Shown piece after piece: positions 1 through 4,719 of a DNA stretch of 4,719 bases (its first letter is position 1; each line of letters begins with the position of its first letter). Both the position numbers and the translations under genes were made by a program. Location: IMG/VR virus record IMGVR_UViG_2660238209_000006. One strand, given 5' to 3'. The notes below the pieces were generated by a model. That model searched no databases. It was not told where the DNA came from and saw nothing but the letters and a program-made list of their open reading frames with translations. The DNA is from a virus. Lineage: Duplodnaviria > Heunggongvirae > Uroviricota > Caudoviricetes.

Positions 1-128
<128 letters not shown>

Positions 129-274
129 CGGCGATTACCCCCCTCGCTGGTTTTTCTTTCTTAAACAGTTCCAAATCACCGCCACTCCTCCACCGTCCGG
201 TACGGTGGAACCGACGCCTGTGGTGCAAGTCTGCGAATACGTTCAAGAACCCCGGCTGCCGCAATGTTTTTCAT
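129..274 (-). pseudogene. Frame-disrupted 5' end of the gene downstream of the replication initiator (possible DnaC/P-like helicase loader), truncated by the poly(T)
   Basis: Minus-strand ATG at 272-274 lies 6 nt after the stop of the upstream replication gene (TGA at 281-283) with a G-rich RBS-like stretch before it. It translates as MKNIAAAGVLERIRRLAPQASVPPYRTVEEWR, then stops at 176-178. A different frame continues open as DLELFKKEKPARGVIA into the poly(T). The DnaC-like call is from memory of the DnaC N-terminus (MKN start, EELLAWQKEQ-like stretch) and is weak. Confidence 0.3.
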
Positions 275-280
275 GCCACA

Positions 281-1357
281 TCACCCCCTGAATCCCGGCG
301 GAATTTCGGTATCCGGTTCAGAAATATGATTCACACAACGCTGGTTGTTCGTGCCGCTTACCGGGAGCAACCAGGGGTTTTCAAAATTCCGGTCCGGCCC
401 AAAAAACGTCGTCGCTCGCTGAACAAATTCCGTTCCCGTTTTCCCGGTAGCCGCCAGGTATCTTGCGTAACGCCTCACACCATCCAGTATGGCCTCTGGT
501 GGCACCCCCTCGCGTAATCTGGCCTTCCAGGCACTGAAAGCGGATTTCTTCGGGTTTGCCCCAGCACGCAACGGGTACTCCCGCCAGACCTGTTCGAACA
601 CATCCGGATAATCCACTCGTCCCACAGACTGACCGGTGTTTTCCGGGACTACCCGATCGGCTTCCCGCTGAATGGCGGAATCGGCTTCAGGCTGCTGAAG
701 TTGGTGTGATTGCTCCTGCCTTGCGGTCATCACCTGCTGCACAGCGCCCGAATCGGCTTTCAGCGCATACGCTGAATCGGCTTCCGGTGTCGTGCCTGCT
801 GGCTGACCAGGATTGACGGTCTGAACATCCCCTGCCTGGTTCGTGGCGTTTTTTACGCCATGGACCATAGTGTTTTGATCTTCTTGATCTGTATCTTTAT
901 CTGTATCTTTATCTGTCGTGACTCGTCGTGACATGTGCGTGACATTTCGTGACTCGCCGTGACAATCGCCATTTTGTTCCCGCTTTCTTTCCCTCTCTCG
1001 CTGCGCCCTCTTGCGCTCTGCCGGAGATTTTGCGGTTTGCGAAATATTGCCGTTGTCCTCTTTCAGCACCTGGCGTTTTTCCCATCCAGTGATTAAATCA
1101 CCATCAAGTACCCGCCCCTGCATCGTCTGCAAAATTGAATCAATTACCTCTTCTGTCACGTCGAGCGCACTTGCCAAATCTTCTGTCGTGACATCAATGT
1201 GACCTCGCGTGACATTTCGTGACGCGCTCACCAGGAGGTGGATATACACTGCCATCACTGTTGCAATTGGCTGCCCTGACACCCTGGCAATTGTTCGCCA
1301 CTTAGGGTCATTTGGCATGTCATGCCATAATCTGAGCCAGGCGTTAGCCATACTCAC
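281..1357 (-). CDS. Phage replication initiation protein (YdaU / O-like replisome organiser), 358 aa
   Basis: Supplied ORF with RBS GAGG 5 nt upstream of the ATG at 1355-1357. It sits directly after the CII-like gene in the rightward early operon. Phased iteron-like repeats lie inside the coding sequence, as in lambda O. The next gene is coupled 6 nt downstream. The N-terminal PKWRTIARVSGQP...YIHLLVSAS motif resembles Rac YdaU-type proteins from memory. Confidence 0.8.
   Translation of the reverse strand: MSMANAWLRLWHDMPNDPKWRTIARVSGQPIATVMAVYIHLLVSASRNVTRGHIDVTTEDLASALDVTEEVIDSILQTMQGRVLDGDLITGWEKRQVLKEDNGNISQTAKSPAERKRAQRERERKREQNGDCHGESRNVTHMSRRVTTDKDTDKDTDQEDQNTMVHGVKNATNQAGDVQTVNPGQPAGTTPEADSAYALKADSGAVQQVMTARQEQSHQLQQPEADSAIQREADRVVPENTGQSVGRVDYPDVFEQVWREYPLRAGANPKKSAFSAWKARLREGVPPEAILDGVRRYARYLAATGKTGTEFVQRATTFFGPDRNFENPWLLPVSGTNNQRCVNHISEPDTEIPPGFRG
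889..963. repeat. Putative replication origin core: tandem 12-mer (CTGTATCTTTAT x2, 889-912) followed by five helically phased CGTGAC iterons
   Basis: Directly seen: CGTGAC begins at 917, 927, 938, 948 and 958, spaced 10-11 bp, immediately after an AT-rich tandem repeat. The array lies inside the initiator gene in the segment encoding ...SRNVTHMSRRVTTDKDTDKDTD. Confidence 0.5.
1155..1223. repeat. Second iteron-like cluster inside the initiator gene, including an exact 17-bp direct repeat of the ori core
   Basis: GCGTGACATTTCGTGAC occurs exactly at 937-953 and at 1207-1223, 270 bp apart and in frame; both copies encode SRNVT. CGTGAC or its partial form also begins at 1187, about 1198, 1208 and 1218, with an inverted copy GTCACG at 1155-1160. 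Confidence 0.4.
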
Positions 1358-1422
1358 CTCTTCTGATACCGAATCTTTTTACTCACGAGTTGCCGGAAGC
1401 GATTCGATACGGCTATTGTCAG

Positions 1423-1848
1423 TCAATGTACTGCCACAGCATTTCCTGCCGGGCCACCACGGTTCATCTGATTGAAACCGGCGATTGCCACTGCGACAAA
1501 ATCATCAGCGTCTCTCACCAGTCGCTCCCGCGTCTCCACCAGCTCCCGAAAATAAGCTGAACTGTGGCTGCGCATTCTGGCCACCAGCAAAGGTGGCATT
1601 GCCTTTTCGATCGCTGGTAACAACGCCTGAATTTTTTCAACTGCATCAGGGGTGTCTTTCTCTACCCAGCGGAAAATTTTCTGGGTATTGCGAGCCAGGG
1701 CTTCCGGATGGCTGTCGTCATACAGTTCAGGAAACGTCATACCCAACTCAAAATAAGCCTGGGTTATTCCAGCTGCTGGAACTTTTTCGCCATCAGGACG
1801 CGCCCAGGCATTCATCGCCATGCGGATGTGTTCATGCTTGATTTTCAT
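1423..1848 (-). CDS. YdaT-like / CII-like early regulatory protein, 141 aa
   Basis: Supplied ORF with RBS AGGAG 8 nt upstream of the ATG. Its start overlaps the 3' end of the Cro-like gene by 17 nt, indicating an operon. Position between cro-like and replication genes matches lambdoid cII / Rac ydaT. The MKIKHEHI start resembles the YdaT family from memory. Confidence 0.65.
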   Translation of the reverse strand: MKIKHEHIRMAMNAWARPDGEKVPAAGITQAYFELGMTFPELYDDSHPEALARNTQKIFRWVEKDTPDAVEKIQALLPAIEKAMPPLLVARMRSHSSAYFRELVETRERLVRDADDFVAVAIAGFNQMNRGGPAGNAVAVH

Positions 1849-2113
1849 GAATCAAGCTCCTAGTAAGTGGTTGTGTTAACGTTTTGGTATCTTCCAGCTC
1901 GGGCCAAATATTCATCCAATCAAAAGGCCTTAGTTGCTGACGTGTAACTTCACCATTACTGGCTCGCTCAATAAGGACACATAACGATGCCCCTAACATT
2001 TGACCTTTACTCAATGCCTTTCTTAGATAACCGATGCTAGTACCACACTCACATGCAAACATACGCTGTTCATCTGACGAAAGAGAATTGAGAAATATTC
2101 TTAATTCTTCCAT
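1832..2113 (-). CDS. Cro / YdaS-like helix-turn-helix regulator, 93 aa
   Basis: Supplied ORF with RBS AGGAG 5 nt upstream of the ATG at 2111-2113. It is divergent from the repressor gene across an operator-bearing intergenic region. The segment CGTSIGYLRKAL is HTH-like. Confidence 0.75.
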   Translation of the reverse strand: MEELRIFLNSLSSDEQRMFACECGTSIGYLRKALSKGQMLGASLCVLIERASNGEVTRQQLRPFDWMNIWPELEDTKTLTQPLTRSLIHENQA

Positions 2114-2137
2114 AGCTACTCCTTAGTAAACACAGCA

Positions 2138-2165
2138 AGAATACCCACAGGTAAACAAAAGTCAA
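2138..2165 (-). promoter_or_regulatory. Candidate pR-type promoter for the cro-like operon
   Basis: On the minus strand: -35 TTGACT (plus 2160-2165), 16-nt spacer, -10 TATTCT (plus 2138-2143), giving a 5' UTR of roughly 20 nt before the ATG at 2113. The -10 overlaps OR1 and the -35 abuts OR2. Confidence 0.5.
2142..2153. promoter_or_regulatory. Operator OR1 candidate (TACCCACAGGTA)
   Basis: A 12-bp site with TACCC and GGTA half-sites, a near-match to the perfect palindrome TACCCATGGGTA found twice downstream of the repressor gene. It overlaps the candidate pR -10. Confidence 0.55.
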
Positions 2166-2177
2166 TACCCTTGGGTT
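2166..2177. promoter_or_regulatory. Operator OR2 candidate (TACCCTTGGGTT)
   Basis: Matches the TACCC-N2-GGGT pattern, 24 bp centre-to-centre from OR1. A 9-bp inverted repeat GGTAAACAA (2150-2158) / TTGTTTACC (2176-2184) also spans this region. Confidence 0.55.
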
Positions 2178-2220
2178 GTTTACCTTGCGGTAATCGCATC
2201 TATTATTTACCTATGGACAA
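2176..2220 (+). promoter_or_regulatory. Candidate pRM-type promoter giving a leaderless repressor mRNA, with a weak OR3-like site
   Basis: -10 TATTAT at 2201-2206 ends 6 nt before the repressor ATG at 2213, with only a weak -35 (TTTACC / TTGTTT around 2176-2184) and no Shine-Dalgarno. This is analogous to leaderless lambda cI from pRM. TACCTATGGACA (2208-2219) is a 3-mismatch operator-like site overlapping the start codon. Confidence 0.4.
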
Positions 2221-2632
2221 ATATGAATTTAGACGACAACAACTCATCAAAATTCGTGATGAGAAATGCGATGGTAAAGCGGTTAACGTGGCCAGAAAGA
2301 TCGGTCGCGAGCCTTCTTATGTATCAAGAATGTTGTACCCAGAGGGGAAAAAAGGAAAAAAACGGATCGCTGATGATATGGTGGAGATTATAGAAGAGTC
2401 CTTTGGGTTACCCCGGGGATGGATGGATGGTATCGTTTCATCATCAACGAACACAGCCTCCAATTATGAAACAAGGGTTCTAACGCCACGACAACGTATT
2501 TTTTTAGATCTCTTAGACGAACTGCCAGAAAGTGAAGCGGATAACTTATTAAAAACTCTTGAAGAGAAAAAACAGTATTACAATATGATCTACGAAGAAA
2601 TCCGTAAAAAGAAAGCACAAAACGCATCATAA
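2213..2632 (+). CDS. Prophage repressor (RacR / CI-like functional analogue), HTH N-terminus, 139 aa
   Basis: Open frame from 2171, but the first ATG is at 2213 directly behind a -10 element. The translation MDKYEFRRQQ...GKAVNVARKIGREPSYVSRML has an HTH-like segment. No obvious S24 peptidase Ser/Lys motifs were seen in the C-terminal half. It is divergent from the cro-like gene and flanked on both sides by the same palindromic operator motif. Confidence 0.75.
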   Translation: MDKYEFRRQQLIKIRDEKCDGKAVNVARKIGREPSYVSRMLYPEGKKGKKRIADDMVEIIEESFGLPRGWMDGIVSSSTNTASNYETRVLTPRQRIFLDLLDELPESEADNLLKTLEEKKQYYNMIYEEIRKKKAQNAS

Positions 2633-2674
2633 CTCACCAAACAACCAGTCACCAGTTAAGACACATCAAAAAAT

Positions 2675-2686
2675 TACCCATGGGTA
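2675..2686. promoter_or_regulatory. Operator OL1: perfect 12-bp palindrome TACCCATGGGTA
   Basis: Directly seen; the site is its own reverse complement. It lies 43 bp after the repressor stop. Confidence 0.7.
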
Positions 2687-2699
2687 TTTACTTTTTAAA

Positions 2700-2711
2700 T
2701 ACCCATGGGTA
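2700..2711. promoter_or_regulatory. Operator OL2: second perfect copy of TACCCATGGGTA
   Basis: Identical 12-mer, 25 bp centre-to-centre from OL1. The intervening AT-rich TTTACTTTTTAAA and the following TATCCT (2710-2715) could supply -35/-10 elements for a rightward pL-type promoter. Confidence 0.7.
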
Positions 2712-2897
2712 TCCTTCCTTTCATACCAACCCACCCCGTCCCACAGAACGCAGGGCAATACTTCGAGTTACCAGGCAGTGGTCAGGGGGTAAGTAGCCAG
2801 CCCGAGGCGTAAGAACATGACGGCAGGGTTCAACTTTAATAACTATGCAGCAGGTTTTTGTTCCGCTACCCCGGCGTTAAGGGGAAATGAGGTCAGC

Positions 2898-3050
2898 ATG
2901 GATACTATCGATCTTGGCAACAGCGAATCTCTGGTATGCGGCGTGTTTCCCAACCAGGACGGTACGTTTACCGCGATGACGTATACCAAAAGTAAAACGT
3001 TTAAAACCGAAGCTGGCGCGCATCGCTGGTTAGCAAGAAACTCCGACTGA
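2898..3050 (+). CDS. Small YdaF-like (DUF1391-like) protein, 50 aa; possible longer form starting at 2817
   Basis: ATG at 2898 is preceded by GAGG with a 5-nt spacer and translates as MDTIDLGNSESLVCGVFPNQDGTFTAMTYTKSKTFKTEAGAHRWLARNSD. The stop TGA (3048-3050) overlaps the next gene's ATG (3050-3052). Resemblance to Rac YdaF is from memory. The in-frame ATG at 2817 has a weaker RBS. Confidence 0.55.
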   Translation: MDTIDLGNSESLVCGVFPNQDGTFTAMTYTKSKTFKTEAGAHRWLARNSD

Positions 3051-3061
3051 TGAGGTTGACG

Positions 3062-3700
3062 ATGGAATTTAAAGATTTACCTCCTTCAATCCAGGAGATT
3101 GCAGCACACACACTTCGTCATCGTCTGAACGAACTTGAATTGGAATCGGTAACGAAAAAAGACACTGATAATATGGCTCGTAATGTGCGCGATGCGTTTA
3201 CCGGATTGTATTTCTGTGCGTCTATAAATAAACACGACTCAGAGAGTGTGGCAAATAAAATTGCAGAAACGACAGCGCAAAACATCAATACGAAACCAAC
3301 GGAAGAAGAAATTGATCAGTTTGCTCATGATGCTGGTTTAAAAAACAAGAAAGAAAAATCGCCATATGCGGGGAACATGTTTGTTTATGACAATCTCATC
3401 AGAATTCGTGGCGAAATTCCGGCGGAATACCTGGCAAGAGTCCATCAGGCATTGCTTAAAAATTTGGAAACAGAATTATTTGATGGCAACACTAACGGTT
3501 TCTTCATGGTATCAGGCCTTGATAAAGACTGGGATGCAGAAAAACGCTGGAATGTTGCTACATGGTTATTCAGTAACAGAGCCGCTGCACTGGAAGCTTC
3601 GGCATGTATTTGCGGCCTGTTCTTAACAGACCACAAATATAATCTGGATGTGTACAGTTATATTTACGCTGAACACGGTCCACTCTGGATTGACTGGTAA
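3062..3700 (+). CDS. Uncharacterised protein, about 212 aa (216 aa if started at 3050); no family recognised
   Basis: Long supplied ORF. ATG at 3062 has GAGG 6 nt upstream; the alternative ATG at 3050 overlaps the upstream stop (TGATG). No transmembrane stretch, P-loop or nuclease motif was recognised by eye. It is the second gene downstream of the OL-type operators. Confidence 0.7.
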   Translation: MEFKDLPPSIQEIAAHTLRHRLNELELESVTKKDTDNMARNVRDAFTGLYFCASINKHDSESVANKIAETTAQNINTKPTEEEIDQFAHDAGLKNKKEKSPYAGNMFVYDNLIRIRGEIPAEYLARVHQALLKNLETELFDGNTNGFFMVSGLDKDWDAEKRWNVATWLFSNRAAALEASACICGLFLTDHKYNLDVYSYIYAEHGPLWIDW

Positions 3701-3910
3701 TTATAAGGAAACACCAGCAGGGCCGCGGCGACCAACAGAACGATTAAAATCAATAATGCCATTATAAAGGACATTATTTAATTTATCGTCGAATGCTGAT
3801 TCTGTGAGCCTCAACTCTGAATGAGTTTTTAATAACCCTGATTGCCTGAGTTGATTTACCAGGCATTCAATCTGTTTTTCAATAAGCGGATTTCTTTTTT
3901 TGTTTGGCAT
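3701..3910 (-). CDS. Small basic hypothetical protein, 69 aa (73 aa from the upstream ATG at 3920-3922)
   Basis: Minus-strand ORF with a strong RBS GGAGGA 5 nt before the ATG at 3908-3910. Translation starts MPNKKRNPLIEKQIECLVNQLRQSG.... It sits in a visibly AT-rich island, and its stop codon (3701-3703) directly abuts the stop of the convergent 212-aa gene (3698-3700), forming TAATTA. Confidence 0.5.
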   Translation of the reverse strand: MPNKKRNPLIEKQIECLVNQLRQSGLLKTHSELRLTESAFDDKLNNVLYNGIIDFNRSVGRRGPAGVSL

Positions 3911-3922
3911 TTTATCCTCCAT

Positions 3923-4432
3923 TGAGGTTCTGGGTTAAAAATGGAGACCAACACGCTGTCACGTGTGGTCGTGCGCCGGACACGGATAAGAATCCGGTAC
4001 TGACAGTTTACTGAAAGGATATTTCCCTGAAAAGTCAGGGCATAACGCGAAAGCGTACGGCGAAGCTCTTTCCCTTAGAAGGCTTGTCGTTAGATTTCTT
4101 CGAACGTGCGCTTCCGGTTGTGGCACTCCGCGAAATGGCGCGGCGGTAAGTATGGCGGGGTTATTCCTTCCCCGTTGAGGACACCGGGTTGTCAGGTTGA
4201 CCATACGCTTAAGTGACAACCCCGCTGCAACGCCCTCTGTTATCAATTTTCTGGTGACGTTTGGCGGTATCAGTTTTACTCCGTGGCTGCTCTGCCGCCC
4301 TTTTTAAAGTGAATTTTGTGATGCGGTGAATGCGGCTAAGCGCACGCGGAACAGTTAAAACAAGCGGTCTTTTACGGGCGTAACGGGAATGCTCTGTATC
4401 CGGCGTTAATTGTTAACTGGTTAACGTCACCT
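3923..4432. other. GC-rich, hairpin-dense region with no convincing CDS; candidate structured RNA or decayed gene remnant
   Basis: No ORF with a plausible start or RBS; the 95-aa minus ORF is Arg/Pro-rich junk-like. Local hairpins: CCCTGA-AAAG-TCAGGG (4025-4040), ACGC-GAAA-GCGT (4045-4056), CCGCG-AAATGG-CGCGG (4128-4143), CGGGG-loop-CCCCG (4156-4174), and a 9-bp stem GGGTTGTCA / TGACAACCC (4186-4194 / 4214-4222). Confidence 0.25.
4186..4222. repeat. Perfect 9-bp inverted repeat with a 19-nt loop (GGGTTGTCA ... TGACAACCC)
   Basis: Directly seen. A perfect 9-bp inverted repeat at this spacing is unlikely by chance in about 500 bp. Function is unknown (RNA hairpin or protein-binding site). Confidence 0.5.
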
Positions 4433-4719
4433 TGAACCGCCCCGGGTTTCCTGGAGAGTGTTTTATCTGTGAACTCAGGCTGCCAGATCATCGTTTCCGA
4501 TGGAAGCATAATAAGCTTTTTCTGCTTCTGCCGGAGGAGTATGGCCCAGCCTTCCCAGCAATCGTCGATTGTTATACCAGTCCACCCACGTTAGTGTGGC
4601 CAGTTCCACTTCTGCACGGTTTTTCCAGCTCTTACGGTGTATTACCTCCGCTTTGTAAAGACCATTGATGCTCTCAGCCATCGCGTTGTCATACGAGTCG
4701 CCTGTACTCCCTGTTGATG
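4433..4719 (-). mobile_element. IS3-family insertion sequence (IS629 / IS1203-like), right terminus and 3' part, continuing beyond the window
   Basis: Terminal sequence TGAACCGCCCCGGGTTTCCTGGAGAG starting at 4433 matches IS629-type terminal inverted repeats from memory (TG terminus). An IS3-family OrfB C-terminus is encoded immediately inside it. Confidence 0.8.
4475..4719 (-). CDS. IS3-family transposase OrfB, C-terminal fragment (N-terminus lies outside the window)
   Basis: The minus-strand frame is open to the window edge: ...STGDSYDNAMAESINGLYKAEVIHRKSWKNRAEVELATLTWVDWYNNRRLLGRLGHTPPAEAEKAYYASIGNDDLAA, stop at 4475-4477. The DNAxAES...LK.E and WYNNRR(L)H motifs are typical of the IS3-family integrase C-terminus. 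The supplied 68-aa ORF is only the part after an internal Met. Confidence 0.85.
   Translation of the reverse strand, partial: STGSTGDSYDNAMAESINGLYKAEVIHRKSWKNRAEVELATLTWVDWYNNRRLLGRLGHTPPAEAEKAYYASIGNDDLAA

Follow-up and report, generated by a model that had tools for sequence, protein, structure and literature searches.

A 4,719-nucleotide (nt) stretch of the IMG/VR virus record IMGVR_UViG_2660238209_000006 (Caudoviricetes; this whole stretch is hereafter called the window) carries three adjoining small genes. These are, on the plus strand, a 50-codon homolog of ydfA and ydaF (2898-3050) and a gene for a protein of 212 amino acids (aa; 3062-3700), and, on the minus strand, a 69-codon gene, here called as69 (3701-3910), which is listed in RefSeq as hypothetical. 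An initial annotation, made from the sequence alone, had grouped the two plus-strand genes as a single cargo in the slot that rex occupies in phage lambda, and had proposed a role in exclusion or defence or, alternatively, in early host takeover. Sequence comparisons now point to a different grouping, in which the 212-aa gene is the forward half of a swappable cassette, each C-terminal type of which has its own antisense gene. The cassette partner of the 212-aa gene is as69, with which its C-terminal domain co-varies, and not ydfA. As far as the searched literature shows, the forward/antisense polymorphic cassette is undescribed, whereas the operon type is known; only YdfA (DUF1391) and the small RNA (sRNA) DicF belong to characterized families.

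The 212-aa protein and its convergent partner

The start of the 212-aa gene was placed at 3062, 11 nt after the ydfA stop codon and just behind a GAGG at 3053-3056. This position is agreed upon by the RefSeq annotation, by the PHROG profile, which begins at residue 5 of a longer 216-aa form, and by all homologs. The 216-aa form would use an ATG at 3050, and it is to this codon that the TGATG overlap described in the initial annotation belongs. Good ribosome-binding sites had also been reported; a GAGG indeed stands 5-6 nt before the start codons at 2898 and 3062, but the ATG at 3050 has no Shine-Dalgarno sequence. Since the two genes are 11 nt apart, translational coupling is plausible, but there is no overlap. 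The longer ORF (open reading frame) does follow the 50-aa ORF as described, running from 3050 or 3062 to 3700, and both ORFs are real; the right edge drawn at 3700, however, cuts the unit, as the minus-strand partner gene begins at the next base.

The 212-aa protein belongs to the PHROG family phrog_2151 ('Ybl81'), of unknown function. It has no match in Pfam, including to any helix-turn-helix (HTH) family, in NCBIfam or in PADLOC (PADLOC-DB 2.0; 5027 defence protein models, including BstA, Abi and PD systems). Sequence searches of the PDB with the single sequence, and with profiles of its N-terminal module, its C-terminal domain and as69, gave chance-level matches only, and fold searches with the 212-aa protein against PDB and BFVD returned nothing specific. 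We found no transmembrane (TM) segment (highest Kyte-Doolittle 19-residue mean, 1.16) and no catalytic or toxin motif recognizable by sequence or fold, in agreement with the earlier description of an uncharacterized protein lacking both. Some homologs are labeled just 'Ybl81', a name used in no paper that we found, and the literature on ybl81, on DUF1391 and on the variable loci of lambdoid early operons holds no description of the gene pair. In a word-indexed search and an exhaustive hidden Markov model (HMM) search of 1.84 billion representatives, full-length homologs occurred only in Escherichia and Salmonella; a 5212-aa match, a eukaryote-like coiled-coil repeat protein, was rejected as compositional. 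Neither the full-length protein nor as69 was found in 50,697 sequenced phages.

The protein consists of an N-terminal helical module (N-module; residues 1-~58, 3062-~3235), a helical linker, and a C-terminal beta-beta-alpha-beta-beta-alpha-beta domain (C-domain; residues ~98-212, 3353-3697). A first AlphaFold model had a predicted local distance difference test score (pLDDT) of 63.7, and a second, with the Salmonella relatives added, reached 72, with about 85 in the C-domain. The better model has four N-terminal helices followed by a sandwich of the above topology, whose nearest folds are ligand-binding or oligomerization domains of the ACT and ArgR-C types. Within the family, the first ~65 residues occur in at least three mosaic variants and residues 98-212 are nearly invariant. 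The N-module (MEFKDLPxxIQEIAA...NVRDAFTGLY) also heads about 10 other proteins of 110-200 aa with unrelated C-termini, and Salmonella proteins 220 and 286 aa long contain counterparts of residues ~100-195 behind a different N-terminus. The 286-aa form is the one with a genuine Cro/CI-type HTH inserted. The Salmonella protein P0141 has such an HTH fused ahead of the C-domain (Pfam HTH_3, E = 8e-6; PHROG 'CII-like regulator', 2.6e-8), and HTH_3 was found in this relative only, which separates the protein of the window from the Cro/CI-type transcription factors.

The minus-strand gene as69 encodes a basic protein (isoelectric point, pI, 9.7) that ends in RRGPAGVSL; an alternative in-frame ATG lies upstream at 3922. 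The protein falls into PHROG family phrog_4274, also of unknown function, has no match in Pfam, NCBIfam or PADLOC, and shows no recognizable HTH or ribbon-helix-helix motif. Between two E. coli variants, the ratio of nonsynonymous to synonymous substitution rates (dN/dS) of as69 is 0.23 in its own frame versus 0.42-2.0 in the other five frames; the values for the C-domain and for ydfA are 0.21 and 0.15, respectively. The 212-aa gene and as69 are both real protein-coding genes under purifying selection.

Among 5426 complete E. coli genomes, DNA of the C-terminal half of the 212-aa gene was found in 600 genomes (751 places) and as69 DNA in 597 (744 places), and all 72 IMG/VR loci with an as69 relative carry a C-domain gene, convergent and abutting. 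Relatives in Salmonella stand on a backbone of integrase, P2-type C repressor and Cox, followed by the C-domain gene. There, the C-domain is 33-37% identical to that of E. coli and the N-terminus is different; each C-domain gene is followed by a convergent ORF of 64-69 aa that is 42-52% identical to as69 (phrog_4274, E = 1.5e-20) and shares with it the motif E..Q...SGLL...S....E..F..KL and the tail RRGPAG. The pairing of C-domain and as69 is retained in Salmonella at 33-46% identity, and the two proteins are charge-complementary in both genera (pI of the 212-aa/as69 pair, 4.9/9.7 in E. coli and 4.7/9.4-9.9 in Salmonella). The stop codons of the two genes either adjoin (3700/3701) or lie within a gene overlap of 11-53 nt, and overlap of the two mRNAs is therefore unavoidable. 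In contrast, DNA of ydfA and its leader was matched in 4352 of the 5426 genomes (9229 places), whatever gene follows, which argues against the initial view of YdfA and the 212-aa protein as one cargo.

At loci with other cassettes, similarity to the window is limited to two stretches, 3062-~3217 and 3899/3909-~4157. The variable segment between these anchors (~3218-3898) comprises the C-terminal domain and the whole antisense gene, which are bracketed by the mosaic breakpoints, and all antisense ORFs use the translation start region ATGGAGGATAAAATG located in the right-hand anchor. We tabulated the pairings at 80 IMG/VR loci plus others, picked by the N-module. A forward product of 212 aa was paired with intact as69 at 46 loci and with an as69 frameshifted in a run of seven A (A7) at 6 loci; forward products of 112/119 aa were paired with a different 64-aa antisense ORF (23 loci), one of 129 aa with a 99-aa ORF (2 loci), and one of 179 aa with an 80-aa cysteine-rich ORF (1 locus). 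Wherever the contig allows, as69 is present with the 212-aa type, and the 112/119-aa type always has the other 64-aa ORF. A shared N-module with about 10 C-terminal types, a variable C-domain and a co-varying small gene make up the architecture of polymorphic effector-immunity systems.

The right-hand anchor that is conserved across cassettes also holds a structured antisense leader (3911-4000, minus strand). It comprises hairpin 1 (CCGGA..UCCGG), hairpin 2, and a CUCCAU/AUGGAG helix over the Shine-Dalgarno sequence. The same three-hairpin layout is present in the window and in two Salmonella loci (L004, 6812-6905, and L005, 7037-7135), with z-scores of -2.7 to -3.1; hairpin 1 is conserved, and hairpin 2 keeps its place with a sequence that is wholly different between E. 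coli and Salmonella. Such a layout suggests regulated translation. The hairpin at 3946-3970 resembles a minus-strand terminator in the window, but it was rejected as one because the U-run is not conserved in Salmonella.

The dicBF-type operon around the cassette

Sequence comparison places the cassette at the head of an early-left operon, of the dicBF type, in a lambdoid prophage. The gene order is repressor, two operators over a promoter, leader, ydfA, 212-aa gene and, later, DicF. The DicF sRNA gene (4249-4300, plus strand; Rfam RF00039, 75 bits against a gathering score of 48, E = 7.5e-16) lies 550 bp beyond the 212-aa gene, on the same strand as that gene and ydfA, and is followed by dicB and a DUF1482 gene in a reference locus identical to the window and in intact relatives. 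Because of this shared strand and of the dicB and DUF1482 genes that follow in the reference, we consider the window to be the equivalent of the Qin dicBF operon of E. coli K-12, with operators at 2675-2711, ydfA from 2898 and DicF on the plus strand.

The likeness of the 50-aa ORF to YdaF, already noted in the initial annotation, was borne out by a match to DUF1391 (PF07151) over profile positions 1-48 of 48, with 98.3 bits against a cutoff of 27.3; the protein is 82% identical to YdaF and 90% identical to K-12 YdfA. An upstream in-frame ATG at 2817 would lengthen it to 77 aa. Its distribution marks ydfA as a generic gene that opens nearly all operons of this type and has no particular tie to the cassette. 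In the IbfA paper, the name ydfA refers to another, plasmid-borne gene, which was therefore dropped.

The repressor gene (2213-2632, plus strand) encodes 139 aa of family phrog_5736 ('transcriptional regulator') and resembles DicA over its last ~45 residues only (33% identity); Pfam gives no HTH match. Downstream of it are two copies of the perfect 12-bp palindrome TACCCATGGGTA, at 2675-2686 and 2700-2711 (start-to-start spacing, 25 bp), as reported before, and three degenerate copies lie at 2142, 2166 and 2181, between the divergent repressor and cro-like genes. When up to two mismatches are allowed, the window contains 8 sites versus 1.16 expected, a number reached in 0 of 200 shuffles. An early-left promoter, equivalent to pL or dicBp, was placed on the plus strand at 2688-2716 (TTTACT at 2688-2693, a 17-nt spacer, TATCCT at 2711-2716) by alignment with the Rac and Qin promoters, that of Rac being TTGACA-17-TATAGT; we infer this placement, because a consensus promoter scan made no call there. 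Operator 2 falls within the spacer and -10 region of this promoter and operator 1 abuts the -35 element. The operon 5' leader extends over 2722-2897. Its conserved part begins at 2722, and a module of ~140 nt (2722-2860) is common to Rac-type loci, where it is 86-94% conserved next to different repressors and operators, and is missing from Qin-type loci. The region 2718-2900 folds no better than shuffles (z-score +1.5) and has no Rfam match.

The 212-aa gene thus stands, as the initial annotation had it, directly under repressor-bound operators at the head of an early operon. In lambda, the rex genes occupy the interval from cI to OL and share a transcript with the repressor. The genes of the window lie downstream of the operators, so they are the first genes of a pL/dicBp-type operon and not in the rex position assigned to them earlier, and, as they are on the DicF operon, we predict their repression in the lysogen, where rexAB is expressed.

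The K-12 dicBF operon is transcribed as a single transcript from dicBp, located just downstream of dicA, through ydfABC to dicF; DicA represses it about 22-fold, and expression from dicBp is low in stationary phase. RNase III and RNase E process the transcript in the ydfA-dicF interval. DicF and DicB are toxic on overexpression, and the functions of ydfABC are unknown in the literature. The window shares with the Qin order (dicA, dicBp, ydfA-ydfB-ydfC-dicF-dicB-ydfD) a repressor gene with operators and promoter just downstream, ydfA as the first gene, a long spacer, DicF and, in intact relatives, dicB; the DNA of the spacer and dicF is 90% identical. However, homology to Qin ends at 3043 and restarts at 3970, and the interval 3044-3969 therefore replaces ydfB and ydfC by the 212-aa gene and the convergent 69-aa gene. 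Neither the two proteins nor this interval shows similarity to K-12 YdfB, YdfC, YdaG or SieB. The window also differs from Qin in its repressor, which is another protein and DicA-like at the C-terminus only, in its operators, in the Rac-type module of its leader, and in an insertion sequence (IS) that splits dicF from dicB.

The Rac locus (racR-ydaG-ydaF/sieB) has a DUF1391 gene 82% identical to that of the window, the same leader module after the repressor gene, and likewise a convergent gene directly after the DUF1391 gene. This convergent gene is sieB, encoding a membrane protein of 162 aa unrelated to as69, and Rac differs further in having ydaG ahead of ydaF and no homolog of the 212-aa protein. 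Other modules were seen at related loci. In one related prophage (L012), a HigB/HigA-like toxin-antitoxin pair lies between the repressor gene and ydfA (2007-2671), and genes for isrK and a C4 antisense RNA are found downstream of its N-module gene (area of 4688-4876), followed by an Ash/pRha antirepressor-type gene. The slot around the operon head collects varied accessory modules.

The IS3-family element end (IS1203-like; 4433-4719, minus strand) interrupts the operon between dicF and dicB and is 99.7% identical to an IS1203-like copy elsewhere in NZ_AP019761. In NZ_AP019761, dicB starts 49 bp past the IS junction point, and the IS of the window starts ahead of the position of dicB; the insertion would leave dicB in this copy cut off from the early promoter. 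Over bases 127-4432, the window matches a lambdoid prophage of E. coli O111:H- strain 110512 at 99.5% identity, and many O111, O157 and O145 chromosomes contain the DNA around ydfA and the 212-aa gene at 100% identity. At the sequence level, this identifies the window as lambdoid immunity-region DNA from a prophage of Shiga-toxin E. coli. Its other arm consists of minus-strand genes, namely a cro/YdaS-like gene (1832-2113), a YdaT/cII-like gene (1423-1848) and a replication-initiator gene (281-1357). Inside the latter, about 10 copies of the short repeat CGTGAC are clustered at 900-960 and 1165-1235 and are probably origin iterons. Window bases 1-126 belong to a tract of 126-128 T. In the otherwise 99.5%-identical reference locus, the tract is missing and a gene for a DnaC-like ATP-binding protein is found there; the tract looks like a masking or assembly artefact, not biology.

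Possible roles of the pair

We propose, with a probability of roughly 40%, that the 212-aa protein and as69 are a cognate protein pair with opposite expression, one neutralizing or gating the other. The acidic C-domain would bind the basic as69 protein. In the lysogen, the repressor would shut the forward gene off and as69 would be made from its own signals, its translation possibly gated by the helix that sequesters the Shine-Dalgarno sequence. Upon derepression, strong forward transcription would yield the 212-aa protein and would also run antisense over as69, silencing it. The shared N-module could serve as a common output or docking part and the C-domain as the specificity part; the effector could be either partner.

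Several observations weigh against this proposal. No promoter was identified for as69, the sole match of the scan overlapping its start codon and being discounted, and the C-domain has a generic ferredoxin/ACT-like sandwich fold with no recognizable toxin or enzyme site. In strain C5 (L014, NZ_CP010122, 2895-3658), as69 is mostly deleted (window positions 3747-3908 are missing) and the forward gene is intact. In 6 of 52 IMG/VR copies, as69 is cut to 21 aa by a 1-nt change in the A7 run (3893-3899, codons 4-6); these frameshifts could be sequencing errors in old assemblies or genuine on/off variation. Together, the deletion and the frameshifts indicate that the 212-aa gene can be carried in the absence of an intact partner. 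Nor do the antisense partners of the other cassette types share the basic character of as69. In the Shiga-toxin (Stx) phage PA2 (L008, 5001-5444), a gene for a 147-aa N-module protein, situated in the early-left accessory region between the recombination genes and ninC, has neither a DUF1391 gene before it nor an antisense partner after it. Finally, the C-domain copies are at least 99% identical in 510 of the 600 genomes, so the genome counts largely reflect one recently spread module, and the adjacency of C-domain and as69 could persist just because the genes abut and travel on one recombination segment. In strain C5, the space before the dicF region is filled by a different minus-strand ORF of 211 aa with cysteine-rich motifs.

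In architecture, the cassette resembles colicin/immunity and polymorphic toxin-immunity systems, in which a conserved N-terminal part is joined to a variable C-terminal one whose type changes together with that of a small neighboring gene. In colicin operons, a large gene is under a repressor that is lifted by stress, and a small immunity gene is convergent to it with its own signals. By analogy, the cassette would have a repressor-controlled large gene and an opposite-strand small gene with its own signals. It differs from colicins in having no recognizable toxin or immunity domain and no export or lysis function; its partner as69 is soluble and basic, not a membrane protein, and some copies have no partner. 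A second likeness is to SieB/Esc of lambda and P22, where an abortive-infection protein has a self-antidote from the early operon, Esc being an in-frame internal product of sieB. Both cases would combine a lysogen-side factor with a cognate early-operon factor that spares the prophage's own lytic growth, in an early-left location. However, as69 is a separate convergent gene, there is no homology, and SieB has TM segments, which the 212-aa protein and as69 lack.

Other known systems fit less. Unlike lambda rexAB, ydfA and the 212-aa gene lie downstream of the operators, and their products have no TM segments and, for RexAB, no significant PADLOC or Pfam match. A comparison with K-12 SieB by BLASTP gave nothing, and neither a Pfam match nor a hydropathy above 1.16 points to SieB. 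As for type II toxin-antitoxin systems, the 212-aa gene and as69 are convergent, not co-directional, and belong to no Pfam or NCBIfam family.

An alternative that we regard as possible, if somewhat unlikely, is that the 212-aa protein works by itself, as an accessory factor of the early phase made only after derepression, in host takeover or anti-defence like Ral, Gam, Kil and DicB, and that the antisense ORF is an unrelated hitch-hiker on the mosaic segment. An early pL-transcribed factor had been the second option of the initial annotation, and it fits the position of the gene better than the exclusion reading. The 212-aa gene heads a repressor-controlled operon that also carries the host-directed DicF and DicB, its product is acidic and soluble with no enzyme motif, as in many phage inhibitor proteins, and the forward gene outlives the loss of as69 in strain C5, just as N-module proteins occur without an antisense partner in the early-left region of Stx phage. 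Yet the pairing with as69 was kept through extensive divergence in a different phage backbone, and every C-terminal type has its own antisense gene behind the shared leader. The absence of a Pfam match to a known anti-defence family, and of the full-length protein and as69 from the sequenced phages, also speaks against a lone factor.

It is unlikely that the pair is regulatory, with the C-domain as the oligomerization or sensor domain of a lysis-lysogeny modulator and the basic partner as a DNA-binding or anti-activator protein made in the lysogen. Such a role would suit the Cro/CI-type HTH that precedes the same C-domain in Salmonella P0141, the proximity to the genetic switch in both phage types (after Cox and after ydfA), the nearest folds of the C-domain and the small, basic nature of as69. 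The E. coli 212-aa protein, however, has no DNA-binding domain, as69 has no recognizable HTH or ribbon-helix-helix, and a cII-like gene is already present on the other arm.

We consider it quite unlikely that the cassette acts at the RNA level, convergent transcription and overlapping RNAs damping leaky read-through into the toxic dicF and dicB, with the ORFs being secondary. The necessary overlap of the mRNAs, the structured leader common to all cassette types, the RNase III and RNase E processing in the ydfA-dicF interval of K-12 and the toxicity of overexpressed DicF and DicB would all agree with this. Nevertheless, purifying selection on the 69-aa ORF is confined to its own frame, the ORF has kept its length and C-terminal motif at 42-52% identity, the Salmonella loci have no DicF downstream, and K-12 Qin has no antisense gene here at all.

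Very unlikely, finally, is the reading favored at the outset, in which YdfA joins with the 212-aa protein in a system of superinfection exclusion or abortive infection that is expressed in the lysogen, like rexAB, sieB or BstA: the genes do lie near the repressor gene, the neighboring position in Rac does hold sieB, and K-12 dicBp is slightly expressed in stationary phase, but the genes stand on a repressed operon and outside the interval that separates the repressor gene from the operators, no independent lysogen promoter serves the 212-aa gene, no significant PADLOC match was obtained for the 212-aa protein, as69 or the repressor (and only a weak AbiEi match for YdfA; E = 0.015, 13 bits), there are no TM segments such as those of RexB and SieB, YdfA is present irrespective of the 212-aa gene, and the sieB of Rac, being convergent, is by position analogous to as69 and not to the 212-aa gene. 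With no matching defence model and no lysogen promoter of its own, the 212-aa protein gains no support for a defence or exclusion role from the analysis, nor does the analysis refute one.

Implications for lambdoid prophages

The proposal of a cognate pair has a wider form, which is speculative and in our view rather unlikely: the locus would represent an unrecognized class of swappable 'lock-and-key' cassettes of two proteins, situated where the early operon begins in lambdoid prophages and in some prophages with a P2-type switch, and combining a common N-module and an exchangeable C-domain with a convergent small partner behind a shared Shine-Dalgarno-sequestering leader. As one partner would be made in lysogeny and the other upon induction, the pair would provide an effector coupled to induction and an immunity made in the lysogen, or the other way round, and each prophage in a polylysogen would have its own specificity. 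If so, this specificity could serve, for instance in enterohaemorrhagic E. coli (EHEC), in self-protection, in competition with co-resident or incoming phages, or in addiction.

The cassette is present in ~11% of complete E. coli genomes, mostly of Shiga-toxin lineages (O157:H7, O111 and O145) and often in several copies, and most EHEC lineages have the locus. The operon around it gives rise to DicF and DicB, which both affect division, metabolism, phage sensitivity and virulence regulation. The ydfA-dicF interval, dismissed as encoding small unknown proteins, holds exchangeable, co-varying gene pairs with a common leader. Even if these are not effector/antidote sets, the unit of analysis is corrected to the 212-aa gene and its antisense gene, in place of ydfA and the 212-aa gene. 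If they are cognate effector/antidote sets, a new source of modules for conflict or control, specific to each prophage, would have come to light in polylysogenic pathogens.

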